Shown here: positions 13,461-56,524 of the stretch, piece after piece
Numbering within the stretch: the stretch's first letter is position 1
How the letters are laid out: each line of letters starts with the position of its first letter
Source: Candidatus Omnitrophota bacterium
GTDB taxonomy: Bacteria > Omnitrophota > Gorgyraeia > 2-01-FULL-45-10
Reading direction: 5' to 3'
NCBI GenBank assembly: GCA_028716065.1
Contig: JAQUQN010000002.1
Location: 6,485-70,484 of the forward strand
Length of the DNA: 64,000 nt
Position numbers and translations under genes: made by a program
The notes under the pieces: model-generated
Seen by the model: the letters and a program-made list of their open reading frames with translations, nothing else
What the model was told of the DNA's origin: nothing
Databases searched by the model: none

Positions 13461-15143
13461 ATGAAGAGAAATATGCGTTTTGCGATAGCCCAGATCGATT
13501 GTTGTGTAGGCGATTTTGAAGGCAACCTTAAGAAGATGACGGCCTGCCTTCAACAAGCCAAGCAGACGGGGGTGGATATTATAGCCTTTCCGGAACTTGC
13601 TGTGACGGGCTATCCCCCTGAAGATCTCCTCCTCAAGGCCAGATTCATAGATGAAAATCTGGAGACCTTGAGAAAGTTATCCAGGTCCGTAGAAGACGTG
13701 GTGGCCGTTATAGGTTTTGTCGACAGGATAGGCTCGGATATATATAATGCGGCAGCGGTAATATATAAAGGCAAGGTGCTAGGAAAATACTATAAGATGT
13801 TCTTGCCCAATTACGGCGTATTCGATGAGCACAGGTATTTCAGGCAGGGTAAGGAACCAATAGTATTCAAGTGGGGCGATCTGGTATTCGGTGTCAATAT
13901 ATGCGAGGACATATGGCATGAGGATGGGCCCACCCGCGCCCAGGCTTCTAGAGGCGTGAAGGTCATAATAAATATCAACGCCTCGCCTTATTACAGCGGA
14001 AGGATCAGGGAAAGGGAGGAGGCCGTAAAAAGCCAGGCAATAGAGAATAAGGTCCATGTGGTTTACGCCAATCTCGTAGGAGGACAGGACGAACTGATCT
14101 TCGATGGCCAGAGCATGATAGTGGATAATAACGGAAAGATAATAAAAAAGGCCGAGGCCTTCAAGGAAGACTTGCTTATTGCTGACCTGGAGATACCGGA
14201 AAACTCTGAAAGATTGAAGGACCTTTATATTACTATCGGTGATAGCGTACCTCCAAAAGATAAGCCTGGTCTGGTCCGGAAAGAGGTAAAGCAGTTAGAC
14301 CCTGTTAGCGAGGTATATGAAGCGCTGGCCCTGGGATTGAGGGACTATGTGACCAAAAACGGTTTTAAAAAAGTGGTTCTCGGATTAAGCGGAGGGATAG
14401 ACTCGTCCCTCGTTGCCTCCATAGCAACGGATGCCATGGGCAAGGACAATGTTATCGGAATTTACATGCCTTCCCGCTACTCTTCATCCGATTCGGAAAA
14501 TGACGCCAAAAAACTGGCTGCGAATCTAGGCATACAGCTTTTGACCATAAGTATCGAGCAGATATTTAAAATATCCCTGATGTCGCTGGACCCTAAATTT
14601 TCCGGACTGGCCAAAGATTCGACCGAAGAGAACCTTCAGGCGCGTATAAGGGGAAACATCCTGATGGCACTTTCAAATAAATTCGGGTGGCTGGTATTGA
14701 CAACCGGAAATAAATCGGAGATGAGCACGGGTTATTCTACATTGTATGGCGACATGGCAGGAGGACTGGCCGTTATAAAGGATGTCCCCAAAACTTTAGT
14801 TTATAAACTGGTTAAATACAGGAATACGGTGAGCGCTGTGATACCCGAGTCGGTGATCAAAAAGGAGCCCACGGCTGAACTGAAACACGACCAAAAGGAT
14901 AGAGACACCCTGCCTCCCTACGATGTGCTGGATCCTATCCTGAAGGCATATGTGGAGGATGATAAGGGACTGAAGGAAATAGTGGCATTGGGTTTTAACA
15001 AGGATACCGTATGCAAAGTCCTGAACATGGTCGATAGAAGCGAATATAAACGCCGCCAATCGCCTCCGGGTTTGAAGATAACCCCTAGGGCGTTCGGCAG
15101 GGACAGGAGAATGCCGGTTACCTCTAGATATAAAGAATATTAA
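13461..15143 (+). CDS. nadE: Glutamine-dependent NAD+ synthetase (CN-hydrolase + NAD synthetase domains)
   Basis: N-terminal nitrilase-like domain (FPELAVTGYPPEDL, NICEDIW). C-terminal SGGIDSS PP-loop. Start chosen at ATG 13461. Confidence 0.9.
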   Translation: MKRNMRFAIAQIDCCVGDFEGNLKKMTACLQQAKQTGVDIIAFPELAVTGYPPEDLLLKARFIDENLETLRKLSRSVEDVVAVIGFVDRIGSDIYNAAAVIYKGKVLGKYYKMFLPNYGVFDEHRYFRQGKEPIVFKWGDLVFGVNICEDIWHEDGPTRAQASRGVKVIININASPYYSGRIREREEAVKSQAIENKVHVVYANLVGGQDELIFDGQSMIVDNNGKIIKKAEAFKEDLLIADLEIPENSERLKDLYITIGDSVPPKDKPGLVRKEVKQLDPVSEVYEALALGLRDYVTKNGFKKVVLGLSGGIDSSLVASIATDAMGKDNVIGIYMPSRYSSSDSENDAKKLAANLGIQLLTISIEQIFKISLMSLDPKFSGLAKDSTEENLQARIRGNILMALSNKFGWLVLTTGNKSEMSTGYSTLYGDMAGGLAVIKDVPKTLVYKLVKYRNTVSAVIPESVIKKEPTAELKHDQKDRDTLPPYDVLDPILKAYVEDDKGLKEIVALGFNKDTVCKVLNMVDRSEYKRRQSPPGLKITPRAFGRDRRMPVTSRYKEY

Positions 15144-15187
15144 ACTCCTATCGCGTTGAAGAGATAGGATACTAAAAGGTGCGATGC

Positions 15188-15231
15188 AGCCCTTTATGCG
15201 CAAAGTAGGCGTGTAAAGGGCTTTAGTTTTT
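15188..15231 (+). terminator. nadE 3' terminator
   Basis: AGCCCTTTA / TAAAGGGCT, 9 bp, 17-nt loop, tail TTAGTTTTT. Confidence 0.65.
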
Positions 15232-15240: not shown

Positions 15241-15789
15241 GTGATAAGAATGAACTTAAATTTCGAAACGCTCGTCAATAGAATAACGCCCACGCTGAAA
15301 AGGATAACGCACCGGCTTAACGGCCATTTTACCTTTTTCGACGACGATGATCTATACCAGGAGGCCGTGACATATCTATGGCCGCTCTTCCAAAGAGGCA
15401 GACTTGGCGACAAGACGGACAGTTATATCCTACAGGGCTGTTATTTTCATCTTAAAAATTATATACGCACCTCGATGGACAAGGCCAAATTGATAAGCAT
15501 CTATAAGATAATAGATGCTGACGAAACCGAGCTTGGCGCGGTCCTGGCCGCGAAGGAGACGCCGGATCCGGAAAATCTGGAATACAAGATATTACTGAAA
15601 GAATCGGATAGGATGGGCCTGACGGAAAAGGAAAGGCGCGTTATATCATATTCATTGGAGGGACTTACTACAAGAGAGATAGGCGACCGCCTCGGTGTAT
15701 CTCACGTAATGGTGCTAAAGATAAAGGGAAAGATCAAACATAAGCTGCGTATTTTCAGAAATGAATACCGGAGAGGTTACCAAAATTAG
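15241..15789 (+). CDS. Sigma-70 family (ECF-like) RNA polymerase sigma factor
   Basis: Region-2-like DDLYQEAVTYLW. Region-4 HTH LTEKERRVISYSLEGLTTREIGDRLGVSHVMV. Confidence 0.7.
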   Translation: MIRMNLNFETLVNRITPTLKRITHRLNGHFTFFDDDDLYQEAVTYLWPLFQRGRLGDKTDSYILQGCYFHLKNYIRTSMDKAKLISIYKIIDADETELGAVLAAKETPDPENLEYKILLKESDRMGLTEKERRVISYSLEGLTTREIGDRLGVSHVMVLKIKGKIKHKLRIFRNEYRRGYQN

Positions 15790-15814
15790 GCATTTTTTAC
15801 TTGTAGAATCGTAG
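15774..15814 (+). promoter_or_regulatory. Conserved 41-nt box, copy 1 (upstream of porin-amtB-glnK)
   Basis: AGGTTACCAaAaTtAgGCATTTTTTACTTGTAgAaTcGTAG. 34/41 identical to 18917-18957. Contains a TAnAnT -10-like hexamer. Overlaps the sigma-factor stop codon. Confidence 0.6.
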
Positions 15815-15849
15815 CCTTGGCAACAAAGGCTAAAGACACATAGAAGTGT
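15812..15849 (+). promoter_or_regulatory. Tandem leader hairpins (amtB operon leader)
   Basis: TAGCCTT-GGCAACA-AAGGCTA and, 3 nt later, ACAC-ATAGAA-GTGT. The second has a hexaloop with A at position 1 and G at position 4, as in ANTAR target loops. Confidence 0.45.
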
Positions 15850-15859
15850 AAAAATGACG

Positions 15860-15896
15860 AAGGCGTTTGGAAGATAAAACGCCTTTTATTTTTTTC
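15860..15896 (+). terminator. amtB-operon leader terminator a
   Basis: AAGGCGTTT-ggaagata-AAACGCCTT then TTATTTTTTT. The 5' arm carries ACGAAGGCGTT. Confidence 0.75.
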
Positions 15897-15908
15897 ATAG
15901 TGGACAGG

Positions 15909-15956
15909 GACGTCTATTCTAATCCGAGGAGGAAAGGAGAGGCGTCTTTTGTTTTT
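15909..15956 (+). terminator. amtB-operon leader terminator b (weaker)
   Basis: GACGTCT / AGGCGTC (7 bp, one G.U), 24-nt loop, tail TTTTGTTTTT. Confidence 0.4.
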
Positions 15957-15975
15957 ATATTAAAGGAGATTTTTA

Positions 15976-17292
15976 ATGAGTCTTAATACAAAAAACATAC
16001 TTAGCGGTCTTGTGGTGTCTCTCTTTATAATCATCAGTTCCTCTACGGCGGTATTTGCGAATGAGATAGAGGAGCTAAGAAATGAGATAAAGATGATGAA
16101 GGAGAAGCTTAGCGCCATGGAGGCGAGATTGCAGCAATCCGAGGCAAGGGCCGCAGACGCCGAAAAACCAAAAACTGGACCGGAAGGGACTATTACGGAC
16201 GCCATCACCTCGATTACTAAGGAGATAGAGTTTCATGGTTTTGTAGACACTTCCTATATATTCAATACGAATACGCCTGTACCTCCCAACCCCAGGACTA
16301 ACAACCTCCGGGTATTCGATACGGACGCCAATGGATTCATGCTCAACATGGCACAATTGAGCTTTGAAAAGACCGTATCGAAAGAATCACCCCTGGGCTT
16401 CAGGGTAGACCTGGATTTCGGCCAGGACGCAAAACTCATACACTCAAACGGCCTTGGCAATCCCGGAGACGAATTCGACCTTGAGCAGGCATATGCACAG
16501 TTCTGCATCCCATTCAGCCTTCCTTTAATGGATACGTTGAGTTTCAAGTTCGGCAAATTCGTCACGTTAATGGGCGCGGAAGTCATTGAATCCGTCAATA
16601 ACTGGAATTTTTCCAGGTCGTACCTTTTCGGTTACGCGATACCGTTCACGCATACGGGCTTGAGGGCCTATTATAAACCCTTCGCGGACATACCGGTCGA
16701 ATCGTACATCGGCATAGTCAATGGATGGGATCAGGTGGACGACCTTAACCGGGCCAAGACGCTGGAAGCCCAGATAGCCGTAACACCTAACGATAAGCTA
16801 TCGTTTTCGTTGGGAGGCATGTTCGGTCCGGAGAGGGCGGATTCCAATAAGGATTTCCGGGACCTTATAGATTTCGTCATAACCTACCAGCCTCTTGATA
16901 AGTTGACTTTAAAAGCCAACTATGACTACGGGTGGGAGAGGAATGGCACGTCGGCCTTCGCCGGCTATACAGACGGCAAGGACGCATCCTGGGATGGTGT
17001 TGCCGGTTACGCCAAATATGATATTTTCGACTGGTGGTCGATCGCCGGCCGCGGTGAATTTTTCCATGACAGGAACGGCGTAAGGACAGGCGTCCTTACA
17101 AGTTCTACGATGCCCATCTCCGACCTGGCTGTCTGGGAATTCACACTTACCAATGAATTCAAGATATTTAAAAATTTCATAGCGAGATTTGAATATAGGT
17201 TCGACAAGGCAAGCGGTCAGGCCTTCACGAAAAACAAGACTACCGCTAATAATCAAAGCACTATAGCTGCTGAAGTAATAACCAAGTTTTAA
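15976..17292 (+). CDS. Outer-membrane beta-barrel porin with N-terminal coiled coil
   Basis: Signal peptide, heptad-like segment, alternating beta-strand pattern and a C-terminal Phe. Sits first in the operon with amtB-glnK. Confidence 0.6.
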   Translation: MSLNTKNILSGLVVSLFIIISSSTAVFANEIEELRNEIKMMKEKLSAMEARLQQSEARAADAEKPKTGPEGTITDAITSITKEIEFHGFVDTSYIFNTNTPVPPNPRTNNLRVFDTDANGFMLNMAQLSFEKTVSKESPLGFRVDLDFGQDAKLIHSNGLGNPGDEFDLEQAYAQFCIPFSLPLMDTLSFKFGKFVTLMGAEVIESVNNWNFSRSYLFGYAIPFTHTGLRAYYKPFADIPVESYIGIVNGWDQVDDLNRAKTLEAQIAVTPNDKLSFSLGGMFGPERADSNKDFRDLIDFVITYQPLDKLTLKANYDYGWERNGTSAFAGYTDGKDASWDGVAGYAKYDIFDWWSIAGRGEFFHDRNGVRTGVLTSSTMPISDLAVWEFTLTNEFKIFKNFIARFEYRFDKASGQAFTKNKTTANNQSTIAAEVITKF

Positions 17293-17314
17293 TATAAGGA
17301 AGGAGGAAAATGCG

Positions 17315-18550
17315 ATGATCAATTCCGGAGATACTGCGTGGATATTGATTTCGACGGCGCTCGTCATGATGATGACTGCGCCGGGTTTAGCGTTCTTTTA
17401 CGGTGGGCTGGTGCGGAGGAAAAACGTCCTCGCCACCATGATGCAGTCTTTCTTCGTACTGTGCCTGATCAGCATCCAGTGGATCTTGTGGGGCTATAGT
17501 CTTGCCTTTGGTCCCGATAAGGGCCATTTCATAGGTAGTCTCGCGTGGTTCGGTCTGAAAGGAGTGGGGATGGCGCCAAATCCTGATTACGCCGCGACCA
17601 TTCCGCATCTATTATTTATGGCATATCAGATGATGTTCGCAGTGATCACGCCCGCCCTGATAACAGGGGCTTTTGCTGAAAGAATGAAATTCTCCGCATA
17701 CGTCGTCTTTACCTTATTATGGGCAACTTTCGTATATGACCCCGTCTGCCATTGGGTATGGGGTACAGGCGGATGGTTAAAAGAGATGGGGGCCCTGGAC
17801 TTCGCAGGCGGCACAGTGGTCCATGTCTCATCAGGCATAGCTGCCCTCGTATGCGCGCTCGTATTAGGAAAACGGCGAGGATATGGCAATGAACCGATGC
17901 CTCCTCATAACTTGCCATTAACCGTCCTTGGGGCCGCGCTATTGTGGTTCGGATGGTTCGGATTTAATGCTGGTAGCGCATTAGGGGCCAACGAATTAGC
18001 CGTGACGGCTTTCATCGCTACAAATACGGCGGCTGCTGCGGCGGCACTTACATGGATGGCCATTGAATGGAACACTATCGGAAAGCCTACCATACTTGGC
18101 GGGGCTACGGGCGCTGTGGCGGGGCTTGTCGCAATAACGCCTGCCGCCGGCTTCGTCTCTCCGATATCCGCCATCTTCATAGGGATCATAGTAGGCCTGG
18201 TATGCTATACAGCTGTCGCCATCATTAAATTAAAACTTTCTTATGATGACAGTCTCGATGCTTTTGGCGTTCATGGTGTCGGCGGAGCAGTGGGTGCCCT
18301 GGTAACTGGGCTTTTCGCGCAGAAGATAATAAATCCCGGAGGGAGCAACGGGCTATTTTTCGGCAACCCTTCACAGCTAGCCACTCAAGCCATCGGTGTC
18401 ATAGCCACCATGGCATATTCGATCGCCGTAACATTCATCTTACTCAAAGTCCTTGATGCGGTCATGGGGCTGCGTGTTTCCGAAGAAGACGAGGTGGCCG
18501 GACTCGACATAACGCAACACGAGGAAAGCGCCTATACATTGTTAGACTAG
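17315..18550 (+). CDS. amtB: Ammonium transporter
   Basis: 411 aa polytopic protein with Amt signatures (DFAGGTVVHVSSG, FGVHGVGG). Confidence 0.95.
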   Translation: MINSGDTAWILISTALVMMMTAPGLAFFYGGLVRRKNVLATMMQSFFVLCLISIQWILWGYSLAFGPDKGHFIGSLAWFGLKGVGMAPNPDYAATIPHLLFMAYQMMFAVITPALITGAFAERMKFSAYVVFTLLWATFVYDPVCHWVWGTGGWLKEMGALDFAGGTVVHVSSGIAALVCALVLGKRRGYGNEPMPPHNLPLTVLGAALLWFGWFGFNAGSALGANELAVTAFIATNTAAAAAALTWMAIEWNTIGKPTILGGATGAVAGLVAITPAAGFVSPISAIFIGIIVGLVCYTAVAIIKLKLSYDDSLDAFGVHGVGGAVGALVTGLFAQKIINPGGSNGLFFGNPSQLATQAIGVIATMAYSIAVTFILLKVLDAVMGLRVSEEDEVAGLDITQHEESAYTLLD

Positions 18551-18562
18551 GAGGAGGTAGAA

Positions 18563-18904
18563 ATGAAACTGATAATCTCTATAATACAGCCGCATAGGCT
18601 TGAAAAGGTGCTGGAAGAATTGAACAAATCGGGAATCAGCCTGAGGACCGTATCCAACGTCCTGGGTTGCGGCAGGCAGAAAGGCCACACCGAGGTATAT
18701 CGCGGGAGGAAAGAGACGGGTAACCTTCTTAAAAAGGTACGCCTCGAAATTGCCGTCAATGAAGATTTCGTGGAACCTACGGTCAGGGCCATCATAAAAG
18801 GGGCAAAGACCGGAGAGATCGGAGACGGGAAGATATTTATAGCCGATCTGGCCGAATGCATAAGGATACGGACCGGGGAGAGGGGCGGCGAGGCGATAGG
18901 GTAA
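18563..18904 (+). CDS. glnK: P-II nitrogen regulatory protein
   Basis: 113 aa with T-loop [12 protein letters not shown] (Tyr51 retained) and DGKIFI. Directly downstream of amtB. Confidence 0.9.
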
Positions 18905-18916: not shown

Positions 18917-18957
18917 AGGTTACCAGAGTAACGCATTTTTTACTTGTATAGTTGTAG
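18917..18957 (+). promoter_or_regulatory. Conserved 41-nt box, copy 2 (upstream of glnA)
   Basis: AGGTTACCAgAgTaAcGCATTTTTTACTTGTAtAgTtGTAG, starting 13 nt after the glnK stop. Confidence 0.6.
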
Positions 18958-18967
18958 GGTATTAATA

Positions 18968-18983: not shown

Positions 18984-19010
18984 CCAAAAATAGGCAAACT
19001 TAAAGAACAG

Positions 19011-19066
19011 AGGCGTTCATTTTGGTCAGCGAGTGATTTGACCGAGTGAGCGCCTTTTTATCTTTT
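19011..19066 (+). terminator. glnA leader terminator
   Basis: 16-bp stem AGGCGTTCATTTTGGTC / GACCGAGTGAGCGCCT (three G.U, one bulge), then TTTTTATCTTTT. Ends 28 nt before the glnA ATG. Confidence 0.7.
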
Positions 19067-19094: not shown

Positions 19095-20603
19095 ATGAAA
19101 AAGAAGAAAGAGAAAAAACTAACAGACGTGAGGACAAAGAACCCGCTCATAAACGGCTCTTTCGATGAAAAGGCCGCCCGGGAAGTGATGAAGATGATCA
19201 AGGAGAAGAAGATACAGATCCTTGATCTTAAATTCAATGACCTGCCGGGCCTGTGGCAGCATTTCTCCATACCCGCATCGGAGCTTACGGAGATGGATGA
19301 CCTGACACGCTCTATCTGGGTGGACGGCATAGGGTTCGACGGCTCATCCATACGCGGCTTCCAGAAGATCCAGGAGTCGGACATGATCCTGATCCCTGAC
19401 CCTGCGACAGCCGTAATAGACCCTGTTTGCGAAGTGCCGACATTAAGCGTCATATGCGATATCTATGACCCGCTTACCAGAAAAGCATATACCCGAGACC
19501 CTAGATATATCGCGAAAAAGGCGGAAAAGTACCTGAAGGCATCCGGTATTGCCGACAATGTATACTTCGGGCCGGAGGCTGAGTTCTTTCTCTTCAATGA
19601 CGTCCGCTTTGACCAGACGGAAAACTCGGGATACTATTTTATAGACTCAGTCGAGGCTGACTGGAATACTGGAAAATCCGAAAATCCTAACCTGGGCTAT
19701 AAGATACGGTTCAAGGAAGGATATTTCCCAGTACCTCCGCACGACTCGCTACAGGACCTTCGCAGTAAGATGATCCTAAAGATGATAGAGGCCGGGATCC
19801 CCGTTGAAGTGCACCACCACGAAGTGGCCACAGCAGGACAATGCGAAATCGATATGAAGTTCGACACGTTGACAAAGATGGGCGATAACCTTTTGCTTTA
19901 CAAATATATCATAAAGAACATGGCCAGGAAGAACAACATGGTGGCCACGTTCATGCCCAAGCCGCTCTTTGCGGATAACGGCTCAGGCATGCACTGCCAC
20001 CAGAGCCTGTGGAAAAACGGCGTAAACCTTTTTTACGACAAGAACGGATACGCGCTCCTGAGCCAGACGGCCAAATACTACATAGGGGGGCTTTTAAAAC
20101 ACGCCAAGAGCCTCATGGCGTTCTGCGCGCCGACGACAAATTCTTACAAACGCCTGGTGCCGGGATACGAAGCGCCCGTAAACCTTGTTTACTCTGCCCG
20201 CAACCGGTCAGCGGCGGTAAGGATACCGATGTATTCCGACAGCCCCAAATCGAAAAGGATAGAGTTCAGGCCGCCCGATCCGTCCTGCAACGCCTACATA
20301 GCGTTCAGCGCAATGTTGATGGCGGGCCTTGACGGGATACAGCATAAGATCGATCCCGGCGAACCCGCAGACCAGGATCTATTCGAATTGAATGAGGAAG
20401 AACTGGCGAAGATCCCAACCGTGCCGTCATCTCTGCGCAGGGCTATAGATGCCCTGGAAGAAGACCATGACTACCTTCTCAAGGGCGGCGTCTTCACAAA
20501 AGACGTTATCGATGTATGGCTCGAATATAAACGCAAAAGAGAAATAGACACGGTGAGGATGCGCCCGCATCCATACGAGTTTTATCTATATTTTGATATT
20601 TAA
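19095..20603 (+). CDS. glnA: Glutamine synthetase type I
   Basis: GSI motifs ([32 protein letters not shown]). The adenylylation-site Tyr is replaced (DLFEL). Strong RBS aaaggagg. Confidence 0.95.
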
Positions 20604-37294: not shown

Positions 37295-37295
37295 C

Positions 37296-49862: not shown

Positions 49863-49880
49863 CTACGTCGGAAGGTATTT

Positions 49881-51281
49881 ATGAAAGAGTATTGCGGAGT
49901 TGTCGGTATCTTCGGCCATAAAGACGCTGCGCGGCTGGCATACCTGGCGCTCTATGCCTTGCAGCACAGGGGAGAAGAATCCGCTGGGATAGTCAGCTTC
50001 GACAGAAAAAAAGTCTATACCCATAAAGGCATGGGCCTCGTAGGCAATGTATTCAGTGAGGAAGGATTAAAAAAATTAAAGGGGCCCATGGCAATAGGCC
50101 ATGTAAGATATTCTACGACGGGCTCGAGCACCACCAAGAATATCCAGCCATTATTGATAAATCATAAAAAAGGGTTCATTGCGGTAGCCCACAACGGAAA
50201 TCTCACGAATTCCGTTGAGCTGCAAAATGAACTCGAAGATTCCGGATCGATACTTCAGACCTCGATGGACTCCGAACTGATAATCCATCTTCTGGTCAGG
50301 GACCAGAAAAATAATTATAGGGAGAAGATGATACCCATCCTGTCGAGGCTTGAAGGGGCCTACGCATTCGTCTTCATGATTAATGACACCATCTATGCCG
50401 TAAGGGATCCATACGGTTTCAGGCCCCTTTCCATAGCGAAAGCGGAAGACGCCTACGTCGTTGCCAGCGAGACCTGCGCCTTCGACATGATACGCGCCAA
50501 ATACGTGCGTGATGTGGAGCCCGGGGAAGTCGTAATGATAAACAAGGACGGCCTGACATCGCTCGGCCACATACCCGGAAAGAGACACGCCTTCTGTATA
50601 TTTGAATATATATACTTCGCGCGCCCCGACAGCAATATCTTTACGAAAAGCGTCTATCTGACGAGGAAGAACCTGGGCAGGGCCCTTGCCAGAGAGCACC
50701 CCGTCGGAGCCGATATAGTGATGCCGATACCCGACTCGGGCACATACGCCGCCCTCGGTTATGCCGAGGAATCCAAGATACCTCTTGAGATGGCTTTCGT
50801 AAGAAACCATTACATAGGAAGGACATTCATACAGCCCAGCCAATTCATAAGAGATTTCAAGGTGCGTGTAAAGCTGAATCCCGTCAGGGATGCCTTGAAA
50901 GATAAACGAATCGTCATAATCGAGGATTCTATAGTCAGGGGCACTACCTCGAGGAGCAGGGTAAGGGCGCTCAAGGAGGCAGGGGCACGCGAGATACACA
51001 TGAGGGTCAGTTGTCCGCCGTTAATATCGCCATGTTTTTACGGGATAGACTTCCCGACCAAAAAAGAGCTCATAGCCTCCAGCCATAAGATCGAAGAGAT
51101 AAGGCAGTTCATAGGGCTGGACAGCCTTGAATATTTAAGTATTGAAGGCATGCTGAATTCCATGCTTCTTCCGAAAGAGGAATTCTGCACCGCCTGTTTT
51201 TCAGGAGATTATCCGACCAGGATATGCAAGCCACCGTCAAAAAAGGCGCTCGAAAAGAGCCGCTGCATGGGGATAAAATAA
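49881..51281 (+). CDS. purF: Amidophosphoribosyltransferase
   Basis: N-terminal [11 protein letters not shown] (Ntn Cys) and PRTase motif [12 protein letters not shown]. Confidence 0.95.
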
Positions 51282-51282
51282 G

Positions 51283-52827
51283 ATGGCTACTGAAGATATT
51301 CTAATAATCGATTTCGGTTCGCAGTATAACCAGTTAATAGCCCGTAAGGTAAGGGAGCATGATGTCTTTTGCGAGATCGTGCCTCCGGACATCTCAGCGG
51401 CATCCATCAGGAAAAAAAATGTGAAGGGTATCATCCTCTCCGGAGGTCCGGCCAGCGTCTACGCGAAGAATGCGCCGTCCTGCGATAAGGAGATATTCTC
51501 GTTGGGCATACCGGTCCTCGGCATATGCTACGGCATGCAGCTCATGACGAAGCTCCTGGGCGGAAAGGTAGAGAGGACTCGCTTTCGCGAATACGGCAGA
51601 GCCGCTCTCACAGTTACAAACCGTAGGATGTTATTCAAGCATATACCTAAAAAGAGCGTCTCCTGGATGAGCCACGGCGACAAGGTGAAACGGATGCCGC
51701 AAGGTTTTACGCGGTTGGCATTGTCCAAGAACACATCCATTGCGGCCTTCGCCGATTTTCGTAGAAGGCTGTATGGCGTCCAATTCCATCCCGAAGTGGT
51801 CCATACCGAACACGGCAAGACCATCATAAAAAATTTCGTAAAAGATATCTGCCGCTGCAGCGGCGACTGGTCGATGCGCTCTTTCGTAAAAGATACCATA
51901 TCCGAGATACGAAAGGTGGTAGGCAAAAAAGAGAAGGTGGTGCTGGGGCTTTCGGGAGGCGTAGACTCCTCGGTGACGGCACTCTTGATAAATAAGGCCA
52001 TAGGCCACCGGCTCGTATGCATATTCGTGGACAACGGCCTCTTGCGTAAGAACGAGGCCGGAAGCGTTAAGGAGATATTCCAGAAGCACTTCAAGATAAA
52101 CCTGAAGTGCGTGGACGCCTCAAAATATTTTTTAAACGAACTTCGCGGCGTCCAGGACCCGGAAAAGAAGAGAAAGATAATCGGCAGGACTTTCATAAAG
52201 GTATTCGAGGAGGAGGCACACAAGGTAGGCGGCGTAAAATTCCTGGCGCAGGGCACGCTCTATCCGGACCTTATAGAATCCCGTTCGGCATTCGGCGGGC
52301 CGAGCGCGACCATAAAGACCCACCATAACGTCGGGGGACTGCCCAAAGAGATGAAACTGAAACTCATCGAACCGCTAAAATACCTATTTAAGGACGAAGT
52401 AAGAAGGGTAGGACGGGAACTCAAAATGCCGCAAGAGGTGCTCGGACGTCATCCGTTCCCGGGTCCGGGCCTGGCCGTACGGATAATAGGGGAGGTCACT
52501 AAAGCGCGCTGTGATATCCTGCGCGAAGTGGATGACAGGTTCATAAGCGCCCTGCGGAGCAACAACCTCTACGATAAGATCTGGCAGGCGTTCGCCGTGC
52601 TCTTACCGATAAAATCCGTCGGAGTCATGGGCGACGAGAGGACATACGAAAACGTGGTCGCCATACGGGCCGTCACGAGCCTTGACGGCATGACAGCCGA
52701 TTGGGCGAAGATACCCCATGAAGTGCTCGGAAAAGTATCGAACAGGATAATCAATGAGGTCAACGGTGTCAACAGAGTCGTCTATGATATAAGCTCCAAA
52801 CCTCCCTCCACCATCGAGTGGGAATAA
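51283..52827 (+). CDS. guaA: GMP synthase (glutamine-hydrolysing)
   Basis: GICYGMQ GATase, SGGVDSS PP-loop, C-terminal ...PPSTIEWE. Confidence 0.95.
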
Positions 52828-52845
52828 TCTAAAAGGAAGCTATAG

Positions 52846-55707
52846 ATGTTTTGGCGGATCGAGATAAAGGAAAAAGAAGGTCATTTCGACGCGCTGGGCG
52901 AAAGCGCCAAAAGAGATATCAATGACCTTGACCTGAGGAGCAGGGCCAGAGAAGTAAAGACCGTCCAGGTCTACCATTTGGATGGGGAACTGCAAGAACC
53001 CGACATAAAGACGATATGCGAAGACTTGCTCATAGATCCCGTAACGCAGGAATACGACTACTCCGGCAGCGCTGAGGCCGAAAGCAGATTTAAAGTTGTC
53101 GAAGTGGCCTACAACCCTGGCGTGATGGATCCCGTTGAGGAGAGCACTAAAAAGGCGATACTCGACCTGGGCATAGCGGGCATACGTTCCGTAAGAACCG
53201 CTAAGAAATATCTGATAAAAGGGGATCTAAGCGCCGACGATATCCGCCTTCTGGCCGAGAAGGTCCTCTACAATAAACTCGTGCAGCATGTCGTCAAAGA
53301 TCCTTCGGAGGTCTCAGCAGAACCGCCCACCTACTGCTTCAAACTTATCAGCGTTGATCTTATAAAGGCAGCTGACAAAAGATTAAAAAAGATATCCAGG
53401 GACGGCCAGCTCTTCCTGGACCTGGAAGAGATGCGGACGATAAAAAAGTACTTCGTGAAGCTCGGCAGGAATCCCACCGACTGTGAACTCGAAACGATCG
53501 CGCAGACCTGGTCCGAACATTGTTATCACAAAACATTCAGAGGCCTCGTCAAGTATAACGGAAAGACGATCGACAACCTGCTCAAGAATACGGTGATGAA
53601 GGTCACCAAAAAACTAAAAAAAAAGTGGTGCGTCTCTGTCTTCGAGGATAATTCGGGCGTCATCAGGTTTGACGAGAAATTCAATATCTGTTTCAAGGTA
53701 GAGACCCACAATCATCCATCCGCGCTTGAACCATACGGCGGCGCAGGGACGGGCATAGGAGGGGTCATCCGCGATCCCTTGGGGACCGGCCTTGGCGCAA
53801 AGCCTATAATAAATACCGATGTATTCTGTTTCGGTCCGCCCGATCATTCCTATAAAAAACTTCCTAAAGGGGTACTTCATCCTAAACGCATAATGAAGGG
53901 CGTCGTCGCCGGCGTGAGGGACTACGGCAACAGGATGGGCATACCTACCTCGAACGGCGCGGTCCTGTTCGACGAGAATTTTGTGGGAAATCCACTCGTC
54001 TTCTGCGGAAACGTCGGTATCATGCCCAGGAACAAATCTTTCAAAGAGGCCCATAGCGGCGACCTGATAGTGGTGGTGGGCGGCAGGACGGGAAGGGACG
54101 GGATACACGGCGCGACCTTTTCCTCCGGAGAACTTACACACGAATCGCACGGCGTCTCGGGTTCAGCGGTACAGATCGGAAACCCTATACAGGAAAAGAA
54201 GCTTGTGGATACCATACTTCAGGCCAGGGACCTCAATCTATACAGCGCTATAACGGACTGCGGAGCCGGCGGATTATCAAGCGCCGTGGGAGAGATGGGC
54301 GCAGAGCTGGGCGCCGAGGTCGAACTGGAGAAGGTGCCTTTAAAATACAAGGGCCTAAGATATGACGAGATATGGATATCCGAAGCTCAGGAACGGATGG
54401 TCCTGGCGGTGCCGCCGGAGAAGATAGACGCGCTTCAGAACGTCTTTAAAAAAGAAAATGTGGAGGCTACCGTAATAGGAAATTTTACGAAAGACAGACG
54501 GCTCAGATTATCCTATGATGGAAACCGTGTTTGCGACATAGATATGCGGTTCTTGCATAAAGGCGCTCCAAGGACGGTGCGAAAGGCCTCATGGAAGAGG
54601 CCCCGGTTCTCCGAACCCAGGATAATCCCTAAAAAAGACCTTACGGGGGAACTCTTGGGACTCCTATCCAACCCTAACATCGCGTCAAAAGAATGGATAA
54701 TCAGGCAATATGACCATGAAGTGCAGGGCGGAAGCGTGATAAAACCTCTGCAGGGCATAAACGGCGGCGGGCCGGGAGACGCTTGCGTAACGCGCCCCGT
54801 TCTCAATTCAAAAAAAGGCATCGTCTTAGGCTGCGGAATAAATCCGGATTACGGAAAGATAGACCCTTACTGGATGGCGGCAAGCGTGATAGACGAGGCC
54901 CTACGACAGATCACATCCGTAGGAGGAAAACTGGATAGGTGCGCCATATTGGACAATTTCTGCTGGGGCAATACGAATAAACCGGATAGGCTTGGCGGAC
55001 TGGTGCGGGCAGCGGAGGGGTGTCATGACATAGCCTTGGCCTACGGTGTTCCTTTCATCTCAGGAAAAGACAGCCTTAACAATGAATATTCAGCCGGAAA
55101 TAAATCCATATCTATACCTCCGACGCTGCTAATATCGGCGATCGCAATAATGGATGACGTGGCCAGGGCGGTCACGATGGACGCGAAAAAATCCGGGAAC
55201 GCGATATATATCATAGGAAAGACCCATGACGAGCTCGGAGGCTCGCAGTATTACAAGATGAAAGGTTATGTAGGCAACAACGTTCCTAAAGTAGATACCC
55301 CAACGGGAAAAAGTATCATGGAGTCCATGAATAAGGCCATGGATGCCGGATGCGTCCGGTCATGCCATGATTGCTCGGAGGGTGGAATGGCGGTAGCCCT
55401 GGCTGAAATGGCTTTTGCCGGAGGACTCGGCATGGAGATAGACCTCTCTATTCTTCCCGACTCGGCTCATGAGGACATCAAAAGAGACGATACGTTATTA
55501 TTCTCCGAAAGCAATTCAAGATTTATTGTAGAGGTCGAGAATGAAGCTAAATTCATAAAGATCATGAAGGGAAAACCGGTATTCAAACTTGGCCGCATAA
55601 ATAAAGGTAAAATTTTCAAAATATACGGCATGAGCGGAGATATTTTGATAAAGAGCGATGTGGACAGGTTAAAAGCGGCATGGCAAAGGCCGTTCAAAAA
55701 CATGTAA
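52846..55707 (+). CDS. purL: Phosphoribosylformylglycinamidine synthase PurL with fused N-terminal PurS-like domain(s)
   Basis: 953 aa. The first ~170 aa are PurS-like, followed by the PurL core (ETHNHPSALEPYGGAGTGIGGVIRD). Confidence 0.9.
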   Translation: MFWRIEIKEKEGHFDALGESAKRDINDLDLRSRAREVKTVQVYHLDGELQEPDIKTICEDLLIDPVTQEYDYSGSAEAESRFKVVEVAYNPGVMDPVEESTKKAILDLGIAGIRSVRTAKKYLIKGDLSADDIRLLAEKVLYNKLVQHVVKDPSEVSAEPPTYCFKLISVDLIKAADKRLKKISRDGQLFLDLEEMRTIKKYFVKLGRNPTDCELETIAQTWSEHCYHKTFRGLVKYNGKTIDNLLKNTVMKVTKKLKKKWCVSVFEDNSGVIRFDEKFNICFKVETHNHPSALEPYGGAGTGIGGVIRDPLGTGLGAKPIINTDVFCFGPPDHSYKKLPKGVLHPKRIMKGVVAGVRDYGNRMGIPTSNGAVLFDENFVGNPLVFCGNVGIMPRNKSFKEAHSGDLIVVVGGRTGRDGIHGATFSSGELTHESHGVSGSAVQIGNPIQEKKLVDTILQARDLNLYSAITDCGAGGLSSAVGEMGAELGAEVELEKVPLKYKGLRYDEIWISEAQERMVLAVPPEKIDALQNVFKKENVEATVIGNFTKDRRLRLSYDGNRVCDIDMRFLHKGAPRTVRKASWKRPRFSEPRIIPKKDLTGELLGLLSNPNIASKEWIIRQYDHEVQGGSVIKPLQGINGGGPGDACVTRPVLNSKKGIVLGCGINPDYGKIDPYWMAASVIDEALRQITSVGGKLDRCAILDNFCWGNTNKPDRLGGLVRAAEGCHDIALAYGVPFISGKDSLNNEYSAGNKSISIPPTLLISAIAIMDDVARAVTMDAKKSGNAIYIIGKTHDELGGSQYYKMKGYVGNNVPKVDTPTGKSIMESMNKAMDAGCVRSCHDCSEGGMAVALAEMAFAGGLGMEIDLSILPDSAHEDIKRDDTLLFSESNSRFIVEVENEAKFIKIMKGKPVFKLGRINKGKIFKIYGMSGDILIKSDVDRLKAAWQRPFKNM

Positions 55708-55708
55708 G

Positions 55709-56524
55709 ATGGGTAAAATAAAAGTCATAATAATACGGACTGCGGGTACCAATTGCGACGAGGAAACGGCATACGCATTTCAGCTGGCGGGGGCCGACGC
55801 GGCACTGGTCCATATAAACGAGGTTACGAGGGGAGAGCGGGATCTTAATGGCTACCATATTATGGCCATTCCGGGAGGATTCACATACGGCGACGACATA
55901 GCAAGCGGCAAGATACTGGCCAACGAATTCAAGTTTGAGTTAAAACACCAGATGCGTAAATTCGTGAAAGACGGCAGGCTCATAATAGGCATATGCAACG
56001 GCTTTCAGGTGCTTGTCAAATCAGGGTTCTTGCCTAATTTAAACGGCTCTTTTGAATCTATCGAGGCTACATTGACAATAAATGATTCTGCAAAGTTCGA
56101 AGATAGATGGGTATATTTAAAAAAAGGGGCAAGGGGCAAGGGACAAGGGGCAAGTAAAGACAGGTGCGTGTGGACAAAGGGGATAGGAGATATAATATAT
56201 CTGCCGGTAGCTCACGGCGAGGGAAAGTTCATGCCGGGAAACAGAGACATCATGAAAAGGCTTAAAAACGAAGGGATGATAGCCTTGGAGTATGTGGACG
56301 AAAACGGCCGAAAGAAAGGATACCCTCACAATCCAAACGGCTCAATAGATAATATCGCCGGTATATGCGATAATACCGGAAGGATATTTGGCCTGATGCC
56401 CCATCCCGAAAGACACATAACATGCTTTCAGCATCCCCGATGGACAAGAAAGAACGCGAAGAAAGAGGGAGACGGCCTGGCAATATTCAGGAATGGTGTG
56501 GCTTTCGCTAAAAAAAATTTGTAA
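55709..56524 (+). CDS. purQ: Phosphoribosylformylglycinamidine synthase glutaminase subunit
   Basis: GICNGFQ nucleophile and HGEG / HPER motifs. Contains a Gly/Lys-rich insertion, KGARGKGQGASKD. Confidence 0.9.
   Translation: MGKIKVIIIRTAGTNCDEETAYAFQLAGADAALVHINEVTRGERDLNGYHIMAIPGGFTYGDDIASGKILANEFKFELKHQMRKFVKDGRLIIGICNGFQVLVKSGFLPNLNGSFESIEATLTINDSAKFEDRWVYLKKGARGKGQGASKDRCVWTKGIGDIIYLPVAHGEGKFMPGNRDIMKRLKNEGMIALEYVDENGRKKGYPHNPNGSIDNIAGICDNTGRIFGLMPHPERHITCFQHPRWTRKNAKKEGDGLAIFRNGVAFAKKNL

Follow-up and report, generated by a model that had tools for sequence, protein, structure and literature searches.

In operon theory and comparative genomics, bacterial genes are usually seen to cluster by pathway or by protein complex. 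The uber-operon concept, reportedly put forward by Lathe, Snel and Bork in 2000, is said to cover coherent genes that stay neighbours while their order and operon boundaries change.

With regard to regulation, ANTAR regulons of nitrogen genes are already known (PMC3369931). In the target RNA of ANTAR proteins, positions A1 and G4 of the hexaloop are conserved, the base G4 is contacted specifically, and one hexaloop suffices as a minimal site (PMC8934654). In Geobacter sulfurreducens, GnfR binds CAGGCAANGGCGCC, i.e. GGC[AANGGC]GCC, which overlaps terminators (Ueki and Lovley 2010, PMC2995071). There was no characterised GAF-ANTAR protein as of Ramesh et al. 2012 (PMC3369931), and we found none characterised after 2012 in the literature that we examined.

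The window analysed here is a 64-kb stretch of a Candidatus Omnitrophota genome, and it was compared with at most 21.6 kb per relative. Its 12.5-56.5 kb part is a glutamine/ammonia gene cluster, the listed glutamine and nitrogen genes of which all lie on one strand (Table 1). We propose, with a probability of about 0.7, that it represents a lineage-wide "nitrogen-donor" neighbourhood of the Omnitrophota (an uber-operon), a large part of which is one riboregulon.

Similarly to the EutV, NasR and AmiR regulons, this locus combines an ANTAR-domain regulator with a hexaloop hairpin (A1, G4) that excludes an intrinsic terminator. It differs from them in sensing through the GAF domain of a one-component protein, and in that most units show one conserved hexaloop hairpin, the loop and 3' arm of which make up the 5' arm of the terminator. 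In the bioinformatic regulons of Ramesh et al., as here, several attenuators per genome precede Amt/PII, GS, GOGAT and AsnB genes, and the gene of the regulator is likewise preceded by attenuators. However, NAD synthase, CTP synthase and carbamoyl-phosphate synthase, which are targets here, are absent from the target lists of that survey (PMC3369931), and the units regulated here are gathered in one chromosomal neighbourhood. The GnfK/GnfR system shares with our locus an ANTAR protein and a leader site that overlaps terminators, with an identical hexaloop consensus, the binding of the hairpin by GAF-ANTAR being predicted here; its response to nitrogen status would also have a counterpart here. 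Unlike our proteins, GnfR acts as a phosphorylated response regulator of the REC-ANTAR type in a sigma-54 cascade and in nif control, whereas the two GAF-ANTAR proteins have no REC domain, the window has no nif genes, its hairpin stems are RRAC/GTYY, and its targets are assimilation and amidotransferase genes. A cascade of the GnfK/GnfR type does not fit the locus, as neither ANTAR protein has a REC domain and the regulator in the sole two-component pair of the cluster is of the DNA-binding, OmpR type. As in an uber-operon, a coherent gene set stays together across many genomes despite its changed order, but the theme here is a shared co-substrate (glutamine amide or ammonia) used across pathways, and not one pathway or complex. 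Knowing that ANTAR antitermination of nitrogen genes is established, we therefore regard our finding as an extension of that principle and not as a new mechanism.

Results

Gene content of the cluster

The first-pass annotation had described glutamine and ammonia genes of several pathways within 43 kb of one strand, and matches to NCBIfam and Pfam profiles bore these identities out (scores in bits, with the curated cut-off where given). PurF, GltB, PyrG, GuaA, PurQ, CarA1 and NadE all retain their catalytic residues. The class I motifs GxCxGxQ and HPE occur in PyrG, GuaA, PurQ and CarA1, whereas PurF and GltB have the Ntn cysteine behind a short propeptide. The genes carB-purF-guaA-purSL-purQ (46593-56524) are separated by intergenic gaps of at most 18 nt. 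From the purine, pyrimidine and NAD pathways the window holds only the amidotransferase or ammonia-using steps, and both flanks (1-12.5 kb and 56.6-64 kb) consist of unrelated genes. Neither glmS nor asnB, hisH, trpG/pabA or gatA occurs within the 64-kb window. The chance that at least six other amidotransferase loci fall within 43 kb of one is 2e-3 to 2e-7, assuming 12-16 independent amidotransferase loci and a genome of 0.86-3.2 Mb (sizes from PMC10066038).

Several unrelated ORFs also occur inside the cluster. Nearly the whole window is one-stranded, with a GC skew that is positive throughout; its base composition is even, and it has no tRNA genes.

Table 1. Positions of genes, leader elements and promoter-like sites in the window, with profile matches or remarks.
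Feature	Position	Strand	Match or remark
GAF-ANTAR protein 1	12567-13280	+	ANTAR PF03861 3.5e-22, 78.4 bits; GAF_2 1.9e-21
Sigma-70-like promoter, nadE leader	13316-13343	+	TTGACA-16-TGnTATACT, 11/12 matches
Attenuator nadE-A	13352-13399	+	AGAGAC[AAGGAT]GTCTTT overlapping terminator; -21.1 kcal/mol, z -7.1
Attenuator nadE-B	13399-13446	+	TAGAC[TAGGGC]GTCTA and terminator
nadE, glutamine-dependent NAD+ synthase	13461-15143	+	NF010588 738.8 bits, cut-off 479; CN-hydrolase glutaminase domain
Sigma-70 region 4/LuxR-type small regulator	15241-15789	+	Precedes porin-amtB
Attenuator amtB-A	15855-15896	+	TGAC[GAAGGC]GTTT, stem of just 3 bp, and terminator
Attenuator amtB-B	15902-15958	+	GGAC[AGGGAC]GTCT and terminator
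BBP2 porin, amtB and glnK	15976-18904	+	PF07642 2.3e-82; TIGR00836 504 bits; PII models
amtB	17315-18550	+	
PII/glnK	18563-18904	+	
Attenuator glnA	19005-19064	+	GAAC[AGAGGC]GTTC and terminator; -29.2 kcal/mol, z -5.4
glnA, type I glutamine synthetase	19095-20603	+	TIGR00653 676 bits
Fis-type HTH_8 protein, 61 aa	20669-20854	+	PF02954 8.7e-17; directly 5' of gltB
gltB (glutamate synthase)	20842-25389	+	NF008730 1778 bits
gltD (glutamate synthase)	25382-26827	+	TIGR01317 671 bits
Promoter-like site, nfnA leader	29062-29090	+	
Attenuator nfnA	29116-29160	+	GGAC[AAAGAC]GTCC and terminator
NfnA-like and NfnB/GltA-like	29200-31448	+	NF004862 376.7 bits; TIGR01316 521.6 bits
gdhA, NADP-glutamate dehydrogenase	31460-32800	+	NF006929 781.9 bits
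Upstream hairpin, possible recruitment hairpin	32870-32886	+	GGCAC[AAAGTCA]GTGCC
Three tandem attenuators 5' of GAF-ANTAR 2	32898-33071	+	GGAC[GAAGGC]GTTC, GGAT[AAAGAC]GTCC, GAAC[GAAGGC]GTTC
GAF-ANTAR protein 2	33081-33776	+	ANTAR 7e-20, 71 bits; GAF_2 7.4e-24; start revised from 32997
GltB-FMN-domain-like gene	33801-35393	+	PF01645 5.4e-19; anchor of the conserved neighbourhood
Promoter-like site, pyrG leader	35557-35584	+	
Attenuator pyrG	35615-35669	+	AAAAC[AATGGC]GTTTT and terminator; -30.5 kcal/mol, z -8.7
pyrG	35681-37294	+	
carA (carA1)	37296-38375	+	Triad intact
First "carB", N-terminal half only	38368-40035	+	Profile positions 1-542 of 1058; residues 1-555
DUF1846/UPF0371 protein	40517-42142	+	Recurrent carB neighbour in relatives
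Two-component pair	42990-45155	-	Regulator OmpR-type, DNA-binding
Promoter-like site, carA* operon leader	45241-45269	+	
Leader terminator of carA* operon	45378-45415	+	Not ANTAR-type; conserved in L083
carA* (CarA2), CarA paralogue	45467-46606	+	Cys-His-Glu triad missing
carB, full length	46593-49862	+	
purF	49881-51281	+	
guaA	51283-52827	+	
PurS-PurL fusion	52846-55707	+	
purQ	55709-56524	+	

The two carA/carB sets

Both of the carA/carB loci noted earlier exist, but neither is a canonical pair, i.e. a CarA with its triad and a CarB with two ATP-grasp halves. The first set associates the intact CarA1 with a half CarB, and the second the triad-less CarA* with a complete CarB. In place of the canonical CarA motifs GICLGHQ and QFHPE, CarA* has GISLGHE and QYYP-V. 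Because its Cys-His-Glu triad is missing (serine for cysteine, and neither the histidine nor the glutamate), CarA* is unable to hydrolyse glutamine and was ruled out as a glutamine amidotransferase. This loss is common to the whole CarA* clade (at least 45 environmental sequences). It resembles a carbamoyl-phosphate-synthase-like precedent in which the glutaminase-like part is kept but dead, with the same replacement of the catalytic cysteine by serine; unlike in that precedent, CarA* is a separate bacterial subunit, and the histidine and glutamate of the triad are also gone. Judged from its sequence, the likeness of CarA* to this precedent would imply no N-acetylglutamate dependence.

Leader attenuators

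The window has ten leader attenuators of one design, a short hexaloop hairpin with the loop consensus A-A-N-G-G-C, in which the loop and the 3' arm serve in all units as the 5' arm of an intrinsic terminator. All ten fold by default into the terminator (z -3.7 to -8.7). They precede nadE, porin-amtB-glnK, glnA, nfnAB-gdhA, ANTAR2-gltB-FMN-like and pyrG-carA-carBN, and the pyrG attenuator has orthologues in four relatives (L003, L014, L037, L066). The amtB and glnA leaders also share a box of about 35 nt upstream. In the glnA-fis-gltB spacer of the window there is only a small terminator, without a clear antiterminator hairpin.

Several lines of evidence characterise the motif. First, our composite detector found seven attenuators in the window, all on the + strand and in leaders, as compared with about 0.75 in shuffles. 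Second, with a detector that picks terminators regardless of the upstream arm (116 cases), a stem of at least 4 bp occurred in the hexaloop register in 77% of cases and in shifted registers in 0-3%. Third, 84.1% of the cells of our alignment A1 are paired versus 37-50% in slid controls, its stem pairs switch between GC and AU, and its covariation score (0.392 versus 0.276 ± 0.016) was reached in none of 500 shuffles. Fourth, over 724 kb of Omnitrophota loci a strict detector gave 81 hits on the + strand versus 2 on the - strand, as compared with one (+) and none (-) in 342 kb of loci from other phyla, and none (+) and a single spurious one (-) in 471 kb of carA* loci; neither of the two latter sets has an ANTAR gene. 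The commonest loop class is AANGGC (30 of 89), and 61 of the 89 loops begin with A and 22 with G. G4 is imposed by these detectors, and its conservation is supported indirectly by an unconstrained scan, in which 6-nt loops alone were in excess on the + strand and G4 was enriched. The motif matched no Rfam family, even at E<=1.

In relatives, the genes found 3' of the motif are ANTAR2, GltB-FMN-like, amtB, sigma-like, fis-gltB, nfnA, gdhA, glnA, pyrG and carB, the ANTAR gene being the commonest one directly 3' of it (29 cases). The sigma-70 region 4/LuxR-type gene has an attenuator at its head in relatives too. Attenuator-headed units include fis-gltBD-gltBfmn-carA-carB-pyrG (L010) and ANTAR-gltBfmn-carA-carB (L015). 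A second, upstream hexaloop hairpin occurs in 43 of 88 units, versus 34 expected. Another hairpin, (G)GCAC-AAAGTNN-GTGC(C), was counted 23 times on the + strand versus 3 on the - strand; it lies 3-25 nt 5' of the first attenuator in ANTAR2 and fis leaders of about ten species.

The carA* operon leader has no hexaloop hairpin and no match in Rfam. The coordinated expression proposed in the first-pass annotation is supported in part. Co-regulation of nitrogen assimilation, nadE and pyrG-carA is well supported, the evidence being the ANTAR-type attenuators that these units appear, from their sequences, to have in common; it is not supported for carA*-carB-purF-guaA-purL-purQ, the leader terminator of which is of a different type. 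Many purF, guaA, purL and carB genes of relatives likewise have their own leaders without the motif, and therefore the riboregulon accounts for only part of the co-location. As purF, guaA, purLQ, glmS and hisHF are often without an attenuator, the co-location extends past the riboregulon.

The GAF-ANTAR proteins

Both GAF-ANTAR proteins exceed the cut-off of the Pfam ANTAR model (PF03861, 27.3 bits), and a receiver (REC) domain is absent from both. The GAF domain of GAF-ANTAR 1 matches PtsP and NifA models. By sequence, the PDB relatives of GAF-ANTAR 2 are the PtsP GAF domain, Nlh1, EutV, Rv1626 and NasR, and AmiR was also matched. In sequence, the locus presents three hallmarks of an ANTAR system, i.e. 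the ANTAR domain, the hexaloop hairpin with A1 and G4, and the mutual exclusion of this hairpin and an intrinsic terminator. GAF-ANTAR 1 is a candidate one-component RNA-binding antiterminator.

Conservation of the neighbourhood

In about 50 further Omnitrophota species, the GltB-FMN-like gene has the same gene set around it in varying order, and the GltB-FMN-like protein is 73-86% identical in 80 genomes. For the neighbourhood of this gene, we compared 36 Omnitrophota-type loci, each 10 kb or longer, with 17 loci from other phyla. Nitrogen-assimilation genes were present in 32 of the 36 versus 2 of the 17, and a nucleotide or cofactor amidotransferase or CPS gene in 18 versus 3. Extra members in relatives are glmS (L007, L015), hisH-hisF (L035, L039, L056) and asnB (L050, L048); the remaining annotated neighbours are unrelated genes, with no other steps of the pathways. 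The clustering, conserved across the Omnitrophota with its order shuffled, follows the co-substrate and not the pathway, as had been suggested: only amidotransferase or ammonia steps are present, and relatives add only hisHF, glmS and asnB. A gene set that stays adjacent across many genomes while its order changes is what the term uber-operon denotes.

The Fis-type HTH_8 gene is kept before gltB, with tblastn matches in 14 of the fetched loci. The recurrent neighbours of no assigned role are the GltB-FMN-like enzyme, DUF1846/UPF0371, a Cys-rich micro-protein, the triad-less CarA and the half-size CarB. The mnmG gene adjoins the cluster here and in L029, L035, L050, L051 and L068.

The arrangement is not unique to one assembly. 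An independent Logan contig (L001) reproduces the HK-RR-carA*-carB junction at 100% identity, L066 and L003 the gltB-FMN-like, pyrG, carA, carB-N and DUF1846 junctions, and L082 carA*-carB-purF-guaA; together, L066, L003, L002, L031, L010 and L082 reproduce most of the other junctions of the window.

Discussion

We propose that the makers and importers of glutamine and ammonia (GS, GOGAT, the GltB-FMN-like enzyme, NfnAB-GDH, AmtB and PII) are kept beside the spenders of glutamine amide or ammonia, which would be NadE, PyrG, CarAB, PurF, GuaA and PurLQ, joined in relatives by GlmS, HisHF or AsnB. Each unit of the riboregulon would consist of a promoter followed by one to three leader attenuators, the default fold of which would be the intrinsic terminator (OFF), whereas an alternative hexaloop hairpin of 4-6 bp, RRAC-[A A N G G/A C]-GTYY, would sequester the 5' arm of the terminator (ON). 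GAF-ANTAR 1 and 2 are the likely factors that bind and stabilise this hairpin when the ligand state of their GAF domain is right. We infer a glutamine-status signal, since the nearest relatives of the GAF domains are those found in PtsP and in NifA-like proteins; a metabolite that reflects nitrogen status, for instance 2-oxoglutarate or glutamine, is the probable GAF ligand. Lying behind three attenuators, GAF-ANTAR 2 would amplify its own expression. The GDH and GS-GOGAT genes lie behind the same type of switch, so that the sign of control is ambiguous. We infer likewise the protein-RNA binding, the direction of the response and the selection that would hold the attenuator-free purine amidotransferases in place.

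The co-location might have no regulatory meaning, being an inherited synteny or the outcome of housekeeping genes joining into long co-directional arrays as a small genome took shape, perhaps close to the origin of replication, with leader hairpins that are ordinary insulating terminators. The almost complete one-strandedness of the window, its constantly positive GC skew, the mnmG gene beside the cluster here and in the five relatives, the reduced genomes of the Omnitrophota (PMC10066038) and the several amidotransferase genes without the motif would all fit. We nevertheless consider it unlikely, from the following observations. First, membership is kept despite the reshuffled order, and lineages recruit glmS, hisHF or asnB. 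Second, each pathway is represented by its amidotransferase steps only, and the flanks are unrelated. Third, the upstream arm of the hairpin lies outside the terminator, and yet it shows one pairing register and covariation.

Knowing that the binding of GAF-ANTAR to the hairpin is predicted, real attenuators could also be operated by another RNA-binding protein, a small ligand-binding RNA, or translation or NTP sensing. The classical dual-hexaloop architecture is not general here; PII, Fis-type HTH and sigma-like/LuxR-like proteins are also conserved in the cluster, and the 35-nt box common to the amtB and glnA leaders is a further point in favour of another operator. This is improbable in our view: a hairpin of 14-18 nt, unmatched in Rfam, is too small for a ligand pocket, its loop follows the A1/G4 rule of ANTAR targets and has the same consensus as the GnfR loop, the frequent position of the ANTAR gene directly 3' of the motif fits autoregulation, and the motif is nearly absent from the loci that lack an ANTAR gene.

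Physical selection, through co-translational assembly or a "glutamine metabolon" in which the amidotransferases of a very small cell receive their glutamine or ammonia from GS, AmtB or GOGAT, would account for a co-location wider than the riboregulon, with its attenuator-free purF, guaA, purLQ, glmS and hisHF, and for an ammonia-type CPS (CarA*) in the same array; it is compatible with the riboregulon and not exclusive of it, and as the explanation of the cluster it seems quite improbable. A chimeric contig is hardly credible: the window is probably metagenome-assembled, and in an exact-match index a single short contig carried an identical protein, but the independent contig L001 and the relatives reproduce most junctions, and the window is even in base composition and lacks tRNA genes.

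Returning to the nitrogen-donor neighbourhood, we tentatively extend it to substrate-supply control, a reading that we place somewhat below even odds. The Omnitrophota would have gathered the glutamine or ammonia steps of six syntheses (purine, pyrimidine, NAD, histidine, hexosamine and asparagine) beside GS, GOGAT, GDH and AmtB, and a large part of them would answer to a GAF-ANTAR riboregulator of nitrogen status, and not to end products.

Together, these data describe a clustering, and in part a regulation, that tracks a shared co-substrate consistently in an uncultivated phylum of very small cells. They yield an RNA motif absent from Rfam and two candidate one-component GAF-ANTAR regulators, and they make the roles of the recurrent neighbours guessable from context. 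They predict that the synthesis of CTP, NAD and carbamoyl phosphate responds to nitrogen status. If the substrate-supply reading is true, the Omnitrophota would possess a substrate-centred regulatory architecture not described for bacteria.

A gene neighbourhood centred on glutamine and ammonia

Scanning all six-frame open reading frames against NCBIfam and Pfam bore out the gene list of the first-pass annotation, which had described a supercluster of glutamine amidotransferase genes lying beside those of GS/GOGAT, AmtB and PII. The cluster is an almost unbroken plus-strand array, the features of which are listed in the table. The catalytic nucleophile is kept in PurF, GltB, PyrG, GuaA, PurQ, CarA1 (the first CarA) and NadE. 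The theme of the cluster bears no relation to either annotated flank, i.e., the upstream 12.5 kb (PilZ proteins, HIT, PanD, Def, YqeY, an M23 peptidase and a radical-SAM protein) and the downstream 7.5 kb (a ParA-like ATPase, LOG, mnmG, a tRNA radical-SAM enzyme and glgC). The glmS, asnB, hisH, trpG/pabA and gatA genes are absent from the 64-kb window.

Features of the window and its flanks (NCBIfam/Pfam: gene call by scanning against these collections)
Feature	Position	Strand	Basis or remark
PilZ proteins	1196-1564, 1612-2100, 5512-5907, 9828-10547		
GAF-ANTAR protein 1	12567-13280	+	NCBIfam/Pfam
nadE, with CN-hydrolase glutaminase domain	13461-15143	+	NCBIfam/Pfam
sigma-70-region-4/LuxR-like protein	15241-15789	+	NCBIfam/Pfam
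TACCA box upstream of porin-amtB	15778-15815		
BBP2 porin, amtB, PII	15976-18904	+	NCBIfam/Pfam
TACCA box upstream of glnA	18921-18958		
glnA, type I	19095-20603	+	NCBIfam/Pfam
Fis-type HTH_8 protein, 61 aa, stand-alone	20669-20854	+	NCBIfam/Pfam
gltB and gltD	20842-26827	+	NCBIfam/Pfam
3 small ORFs, redox or unknown	between gltD and NfnA/NfnB-like genes	+	
NfnA/NfnB-like genes and NADP-gdhA	29200-32800	+	NCBIfam/Pfam
GAF-ANTAR protein 2 (ANTAR2)	33081-33776	+	NCBIfam/Pfam
GltB-FMN-domain-like protein, 530 aa (X)	33801-35393	+	NCBIfam/Pfam
Cys-rich micro-ORF, 45 aa	35405-35542	+	directly after X
pyrG, carA, N-terminal half of carB (carBN)	35681-40035	+	NCBIfam/Pfam
PilZ protein	40098-40562		after carBN
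DUF1846/UPF0371, then unknown ORF	40517-42142 (DUF1846)		after carBN
Inverted copy related to 48-nt repeat	42165-42192		after DUF1846
Histidine kinase and OmpR-type regulator	42990-45155	-	NCBIfam/Pfam
Leader terminator of carA* operon	45378-45415		
carA*, carB, purF, guaA, purS-purL, purQ	45467-56524 (carA*, 45467-46606)	+	gaps of at most 18 nt
ParA/MinD-type ATPase with AMPK1_CBM/CBM48 domain	57312-58454		
48-nt tandem repeat	59811-59906		88% identity
glgC	62672-63919	-	

The following lines of evidence argue that this clustering is real and selective. First, if a genome of 0.86-3.2 Mb (size range from PMC10066038) is taken to carry 12-16 independent amidotransferase loci, the probability of finding at least six further loci within 43 kb of one of them is 2e-3 to 2e-7. 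Second, and more telling than this estimate, the pathways are represented only in part: only PurF, PurSLQ and GuaA for purines, only carbamoyl-phosphate synthase (CPS) and PyrG for pyrimidines, and only NadE for NAD. Third, a mis-join of the contig is countered by the recurrence of the junctions in independent assemblies (the relatives' loci L001, with 100% identity, L066, L003, L002, L031, L010 and L082), by the even base composition of the window and by the lack of tRNA genes across its whole length; an exact-match search with carA* returned a single contig of 3.3 kb. Altogether, the supercluster is confirmed, with corrections concerning carA* and the first carB.

Other features were noticed in the window. 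The five PilZ proteins encoded in 64 kb, one of them fused to a STAS domain and another lying inside the nitrogen cluster, suggest a heavy use of c-di-GMP signalling. The ParA/MinD-type ATPase fused to a glycogen-binding domain, with glgC nearby, may position glycogen granules. The 48-nt tandem repeat, which contains CCCCCAC..TTAGATTTGCGAAGCAAATCT, and its related inverted copy look like a small repeated palindromic element.

Conserved membership and shuffled order in relatives

The best matches to the GltB-FMN-like protein in a genome-collection scan were from Candidatus Omnitrophota (86% identity). Using its gene (X) as anchor, we compared all window proteins with 80 fetched loci by tblastn, and found, in Omnitrophota, the same genes around X in many different orders, such as gltB-gltD-X-carA-carB-purF-pyrG (L005), amtB-glnK-fis-gltB-gltD-X-carA-carB-pyrG-glnA-nadE (L010), ANTAR-X-carA-carB-purS-purQ-purL-purF-glmS (L015), ANTAR-gdhA-X-carB-guaA-purL-hisH-hisF-purF (L035) and X-(nadE)-carB-guaA-purQ-purL-hisH (L039 and L056). 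The neighbourhood is thus conserved across Omnitrophota loci, in the pattern of an uber-operon, where membership is kept and order is not. Among loci of at least 10 kb, nitrogen-assimilation genes occur in 32 of 36 of the Omnitrophota type versus 2 of 17 from other phyla, and a nucleotide/cofactor amidotransferase or CPS gene in 18/36 versus 3/17. Some species add glmS, hisH-hisF, asnB, a type III-like GS, an aspartate aminotransferase, a NuoE/NuoF/HoxU-like module before X, or a PurF-like protein lacking the N-terminal Cys. No other pathway step was met among the relatives' annotated neighbours, the remainder of which are unrelated (beta-CASP RNase, DusB, Na/Pi transporter, PhoU, IleRS, AroA, FeoB).

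The PurF-like proteins (GATase_7 and PRTase-like part; L019, 8351-9778; L050, 4255-5664) begin with SGVFGV instead of the catalytic CG, adjoin DUF1846 or a GAF-ANTAR gene, and are a further amidotransferase homologue that may have lost glutamine use. The GltB-FMN-like protein itself, 73-86% identical across Omnitrophota, Dehalococcoidia, Desulfobacterota and MAGs labelled archaeal, and with no relative in a PDB sequence search, may form glutamate in a reaction that depends on ammonia and is linked to NADH or ferredoxin. Directly 3' of its gene, many species (e.g., L002, L004, L007, L035, L037 and L066) carry the Cys-rich micro-ORF (about 45-55 aa; KGLCxxC...C.F...FP....CEEF), which has no match in Pfam. 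The Fis-type HTH_8 gene is conserved immediately before gltB in many Omnitrophota loci, often headed by an attenuator.

Hexaloop attenuators in the leaders

An intergenic scan revealed sigma-70-like promoters before nadE, nfnA, pyrG and carA*, and a TTGACA/TATAAA pair, read by eye and unscored, stands before ANTAR2; the leaders following these promoters contain strong intrinsic terminators. Ten terminators in the window share one design: a stem of 4-6 bp closes a hexaloop (RRAC-[A A N G G/A C]-GTYY as consensus), and the hairpin's loop and 3' arm double as the 5' arm of the terminator. These attenuators occur in the leaders of nadE (two; U-tracts at 13393 and 13440), porin-amtB (two; 15886 and 15949), glnA (one; 19055), nfnA (one; 29150), ANTAR2 (three; 32925, 33014 and 33062) and pyrG (one; 35660), and the default fold is the terminator in all ten units (-15 to -30.5 kcal/mol; z -3.7 to -8.7).

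The hairpin is supported by three tests. In the window, a composite detector returned seven instances, every one in a plus-strand leader, as compared with about 0.75 in shuffled sequence. When we selected, blind to the hairpin, every G[AG][CT]GT[CT] opening a terminator 5' arm (n=116, plus strand), 77% of the cases had a stem of 4 bp or more in the hexaloop register versus 0-3% at register shifts of 1-4 nt. In the gapless alignment A1, 84.1% of the cells are paired, as against 37-50% with slid partners, and the covariation score is 0.392 versus 0.276 ± 0.016 (0/500 shuffles reach 0.392), two stem pairs alternating between GC, AU and GU (53, 29 and 9 cases; 31, 42 and 29 cases). A strict detector found 81 plus-strand and 2 minus-strand matches in the Omnitrophota loci (724 kb in total), as against 1 and 0 in loci from other phyla (342 kb); in the window the counts are 8 and 0.

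Rfam returned no family at gathering thresholds for the whole window, and none at E≤1 over 12.5-36 kb, which rules out glutamine, PyrR-type or purine riboswitches. A search for a general upstream hexaloop hairpin (P1) gave none that was significant, and the second hairpin of classical ANTAR targets seems not to be a general feature here; in about 10 species, a conserved (G)GCAC-AAAGTNN-GTGC(C) hairpin stands ahead of the first attenuator in the ANTAR2 and fis leaders. Upstream of the porin-amtB and glnA leaders lies a common box, TACCA-N8-GCATTTTTTACTTGTA, a similar one preceding amtB in L034 (about 3410-3450). It does not have the spacing of a sigma-54 promoter, and may be a promoter or operator for a second, DNA-level nitrogen control.

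Among relatives, the motif is directly followed by ANTAR2 (29 cases), the anchor X (8), the sigma-like and porin-like genes (5 each), amtB, fis-gltB and pyrG (4 each), nfnA (3), gltB, gdhA and glnA (2 each) and carB (1). The tight units headed by attenuators include fis-gltB-gltD-X-carA-carB-pyrG (L010), ANTAR-X-carA-carB (L015), ANTAR-X-pyrG (L024), pyrG-carA-carBN-DUF1846 (L003, L066), carB-DUF1846 (L045) and NuoEF-HoxU-X-guaA (L051). Hence, one switch type is common to nitrogen assimilation, NAD synthase and CTP synthase and, in several species, to CPS and GMP synthase. GDH and GS-GOGAT both stand under this type of switch, so that the response could run in either direction.

The GAF-ANTAR proteins as candidate regulators

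Both GAF-ANTAR proteins score well over the Pfam cut-off for ANTAR. Their GAF domains are nearest by sequence to those of PtsP (EI-Ntr), NifA-like activators and NifA itself. Because GAF domains of these types bind glutamine and/or 2-oxoglutarate, we propose, from this likeness, that the ligand is a nitrogen-status metabolite. The GAF-ANTAR 1 gene follows a radical-SAM gene without a leader, and the GAF-ANTAR 2 gene has three attenuators upstream. A reasonable reading is that the former would be the basal sensor and the latter a self-amplifying copy.

ANTAR proteins are known to act on hexaloop hairpins that compete with a terminator and carry A as the first and G as the fourth base of the loop; the base-specific contact is G4 and the minimal site is one hexaloop (PMC3369931, PMC8934654). 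Here, position 1 is A in 61/89 loops. In Geobacter, the ANTAR regulator GnfR recognises CAGGCAANGGCGCC at terminators (PMC2995071), and AANGGC, the loop of its site GGC[AANGGC]GCC, is also the commonest loop class here (30/89). Attenuation by ANTAR proteins is an established mode of control for nitrogen genes: the targets given by Ramesh et al. (PMC3369931) include Amt/PII, GS, GOGAT and AsnB, with 13 attenuators over six transcription units in Desulfotomaculum acetoxidans, and GAF-ANTAR proteins were noted there as uncharacterised.

Two unusual carbamoyl-phosphate synthase gene sets

The two carA/carB sets that had been reported stand in part: carA1 is intact and the second carB full-length, but the first carB stops at residue 555 (carboxyphosphate and oligomerisation domains only) and CarA*, counted until now among the amidotransferases, is not one. 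It has lost the entire Cys-His-Glu triad, reading GISLGHE and QYYP-V where CarA1 has GICLGHQ and QFHPE. A metagenome scan yielded 45 CarA* relatives (51-62% identity), in all of which the Cys is replaced by Ser or Ala and the His is missing, a recurrence that speaks against single-genome decay; carB (73-84% identity) follows each carA* relative where the contig reaches far enough. In human CPS1, it is this same Cys-to-Ser replacement that prevents the use of glutamine (PMC4655335). From this precedent and the triad loss, the CarA*-CarB enzyme is most likely ammonia-dependent. The clade comprises at least 45 environmental CarA homologues (L082-L126, beside the window gene), and points to an ammonia-dependent CPS that would be widespread in bacteria, as a counterpart of CPS I in animals. 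A PyrK-like gene follows carA*-carB in many of the loci.

The half-size carB (residues 1-555) is conserved in L003, L009 and L066 (75-79% identity), and in L047 the same carA is accompanied by a carB split into N and C parts, then by a second, full-length carB. DUF1846/UPF0371 (solved structures 7f00 and 3bh1; only 'UPF0371' entries in a PDB sequence search) repeatedly adjoins carB, carBN or carA* (L003, L004, L009, L019, L045, L083, L084), which hints at a role tied to carbamoyl phosphate.

Co-location extends beyond demonstrable co-regulation

A promoter-like site and a leader terminator (U-tract at 45409) precede the carA*-carB-purF-guaA-purL-purQ operon; the terminator is conserved in L083 but lacks the RRAC/GTYY hexaloop hairpin. 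In 471 kb of the 45 related metagenome loci, the strict detector found no ANTAR-type motif before carA* on the plus strand, and one spurious match on the minus strand. Rfam gave only noise at E≤10 for this leader. A PyrR-like site, GGCCAGGGGAGG, compared with CCAGAGAGG, which we take to be the PyrR consensus, was dropped, as it has no Rfam support and its sequence is the terminator arm itself. Conserved blocks (GATGTC, ATACAA, GGCCAG.GG ... TCGTCTCTC.TGGC and a U-tract; 45300-45466 versus 1050-1217 in L083) are kept although the two CarA* proteins are only 59% identical, which implies an attenuation mechanism.

In relatives, many purF, guaA, purL and carB genes likewise have their own motif-less leaders, and the glnA-fis-gltB spacer of the window holds only a small terminator. 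Together with the carA* leader, these data indicate that co-location is wider than demonstrable co-regulation. The first-pass annotation proposed coordinated, glutamine-status-driven expression. The coordination finds support in the attenuator type shared by the nitrogen-assimilation and NAD/CTP synthase units, but not in the carA*-purQ operon, and glutamine status is a putative signal. Read-through along the array of co-directional genes may add to the co-location, as may physical coupling within so small a cell.

We found no published description of the clustering of different amidotransferase genes, or of ANTAR, in Omnitrophota ('ANTAR' queries mostly matched 'Antarctic'). As compared with the survey of Ramesh et al. 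and the Omnitrophota literature searched, what is new is a conserved neighbourhood centred on a co-substrate and crossing six pathways, together with the reach of an ANTAR-type switch to genes of NAD, CTP and carbamoyl-phosphate synthesis, and its compact geometry, in which one strand is shared by the hexaloop hairpin and the terminator.
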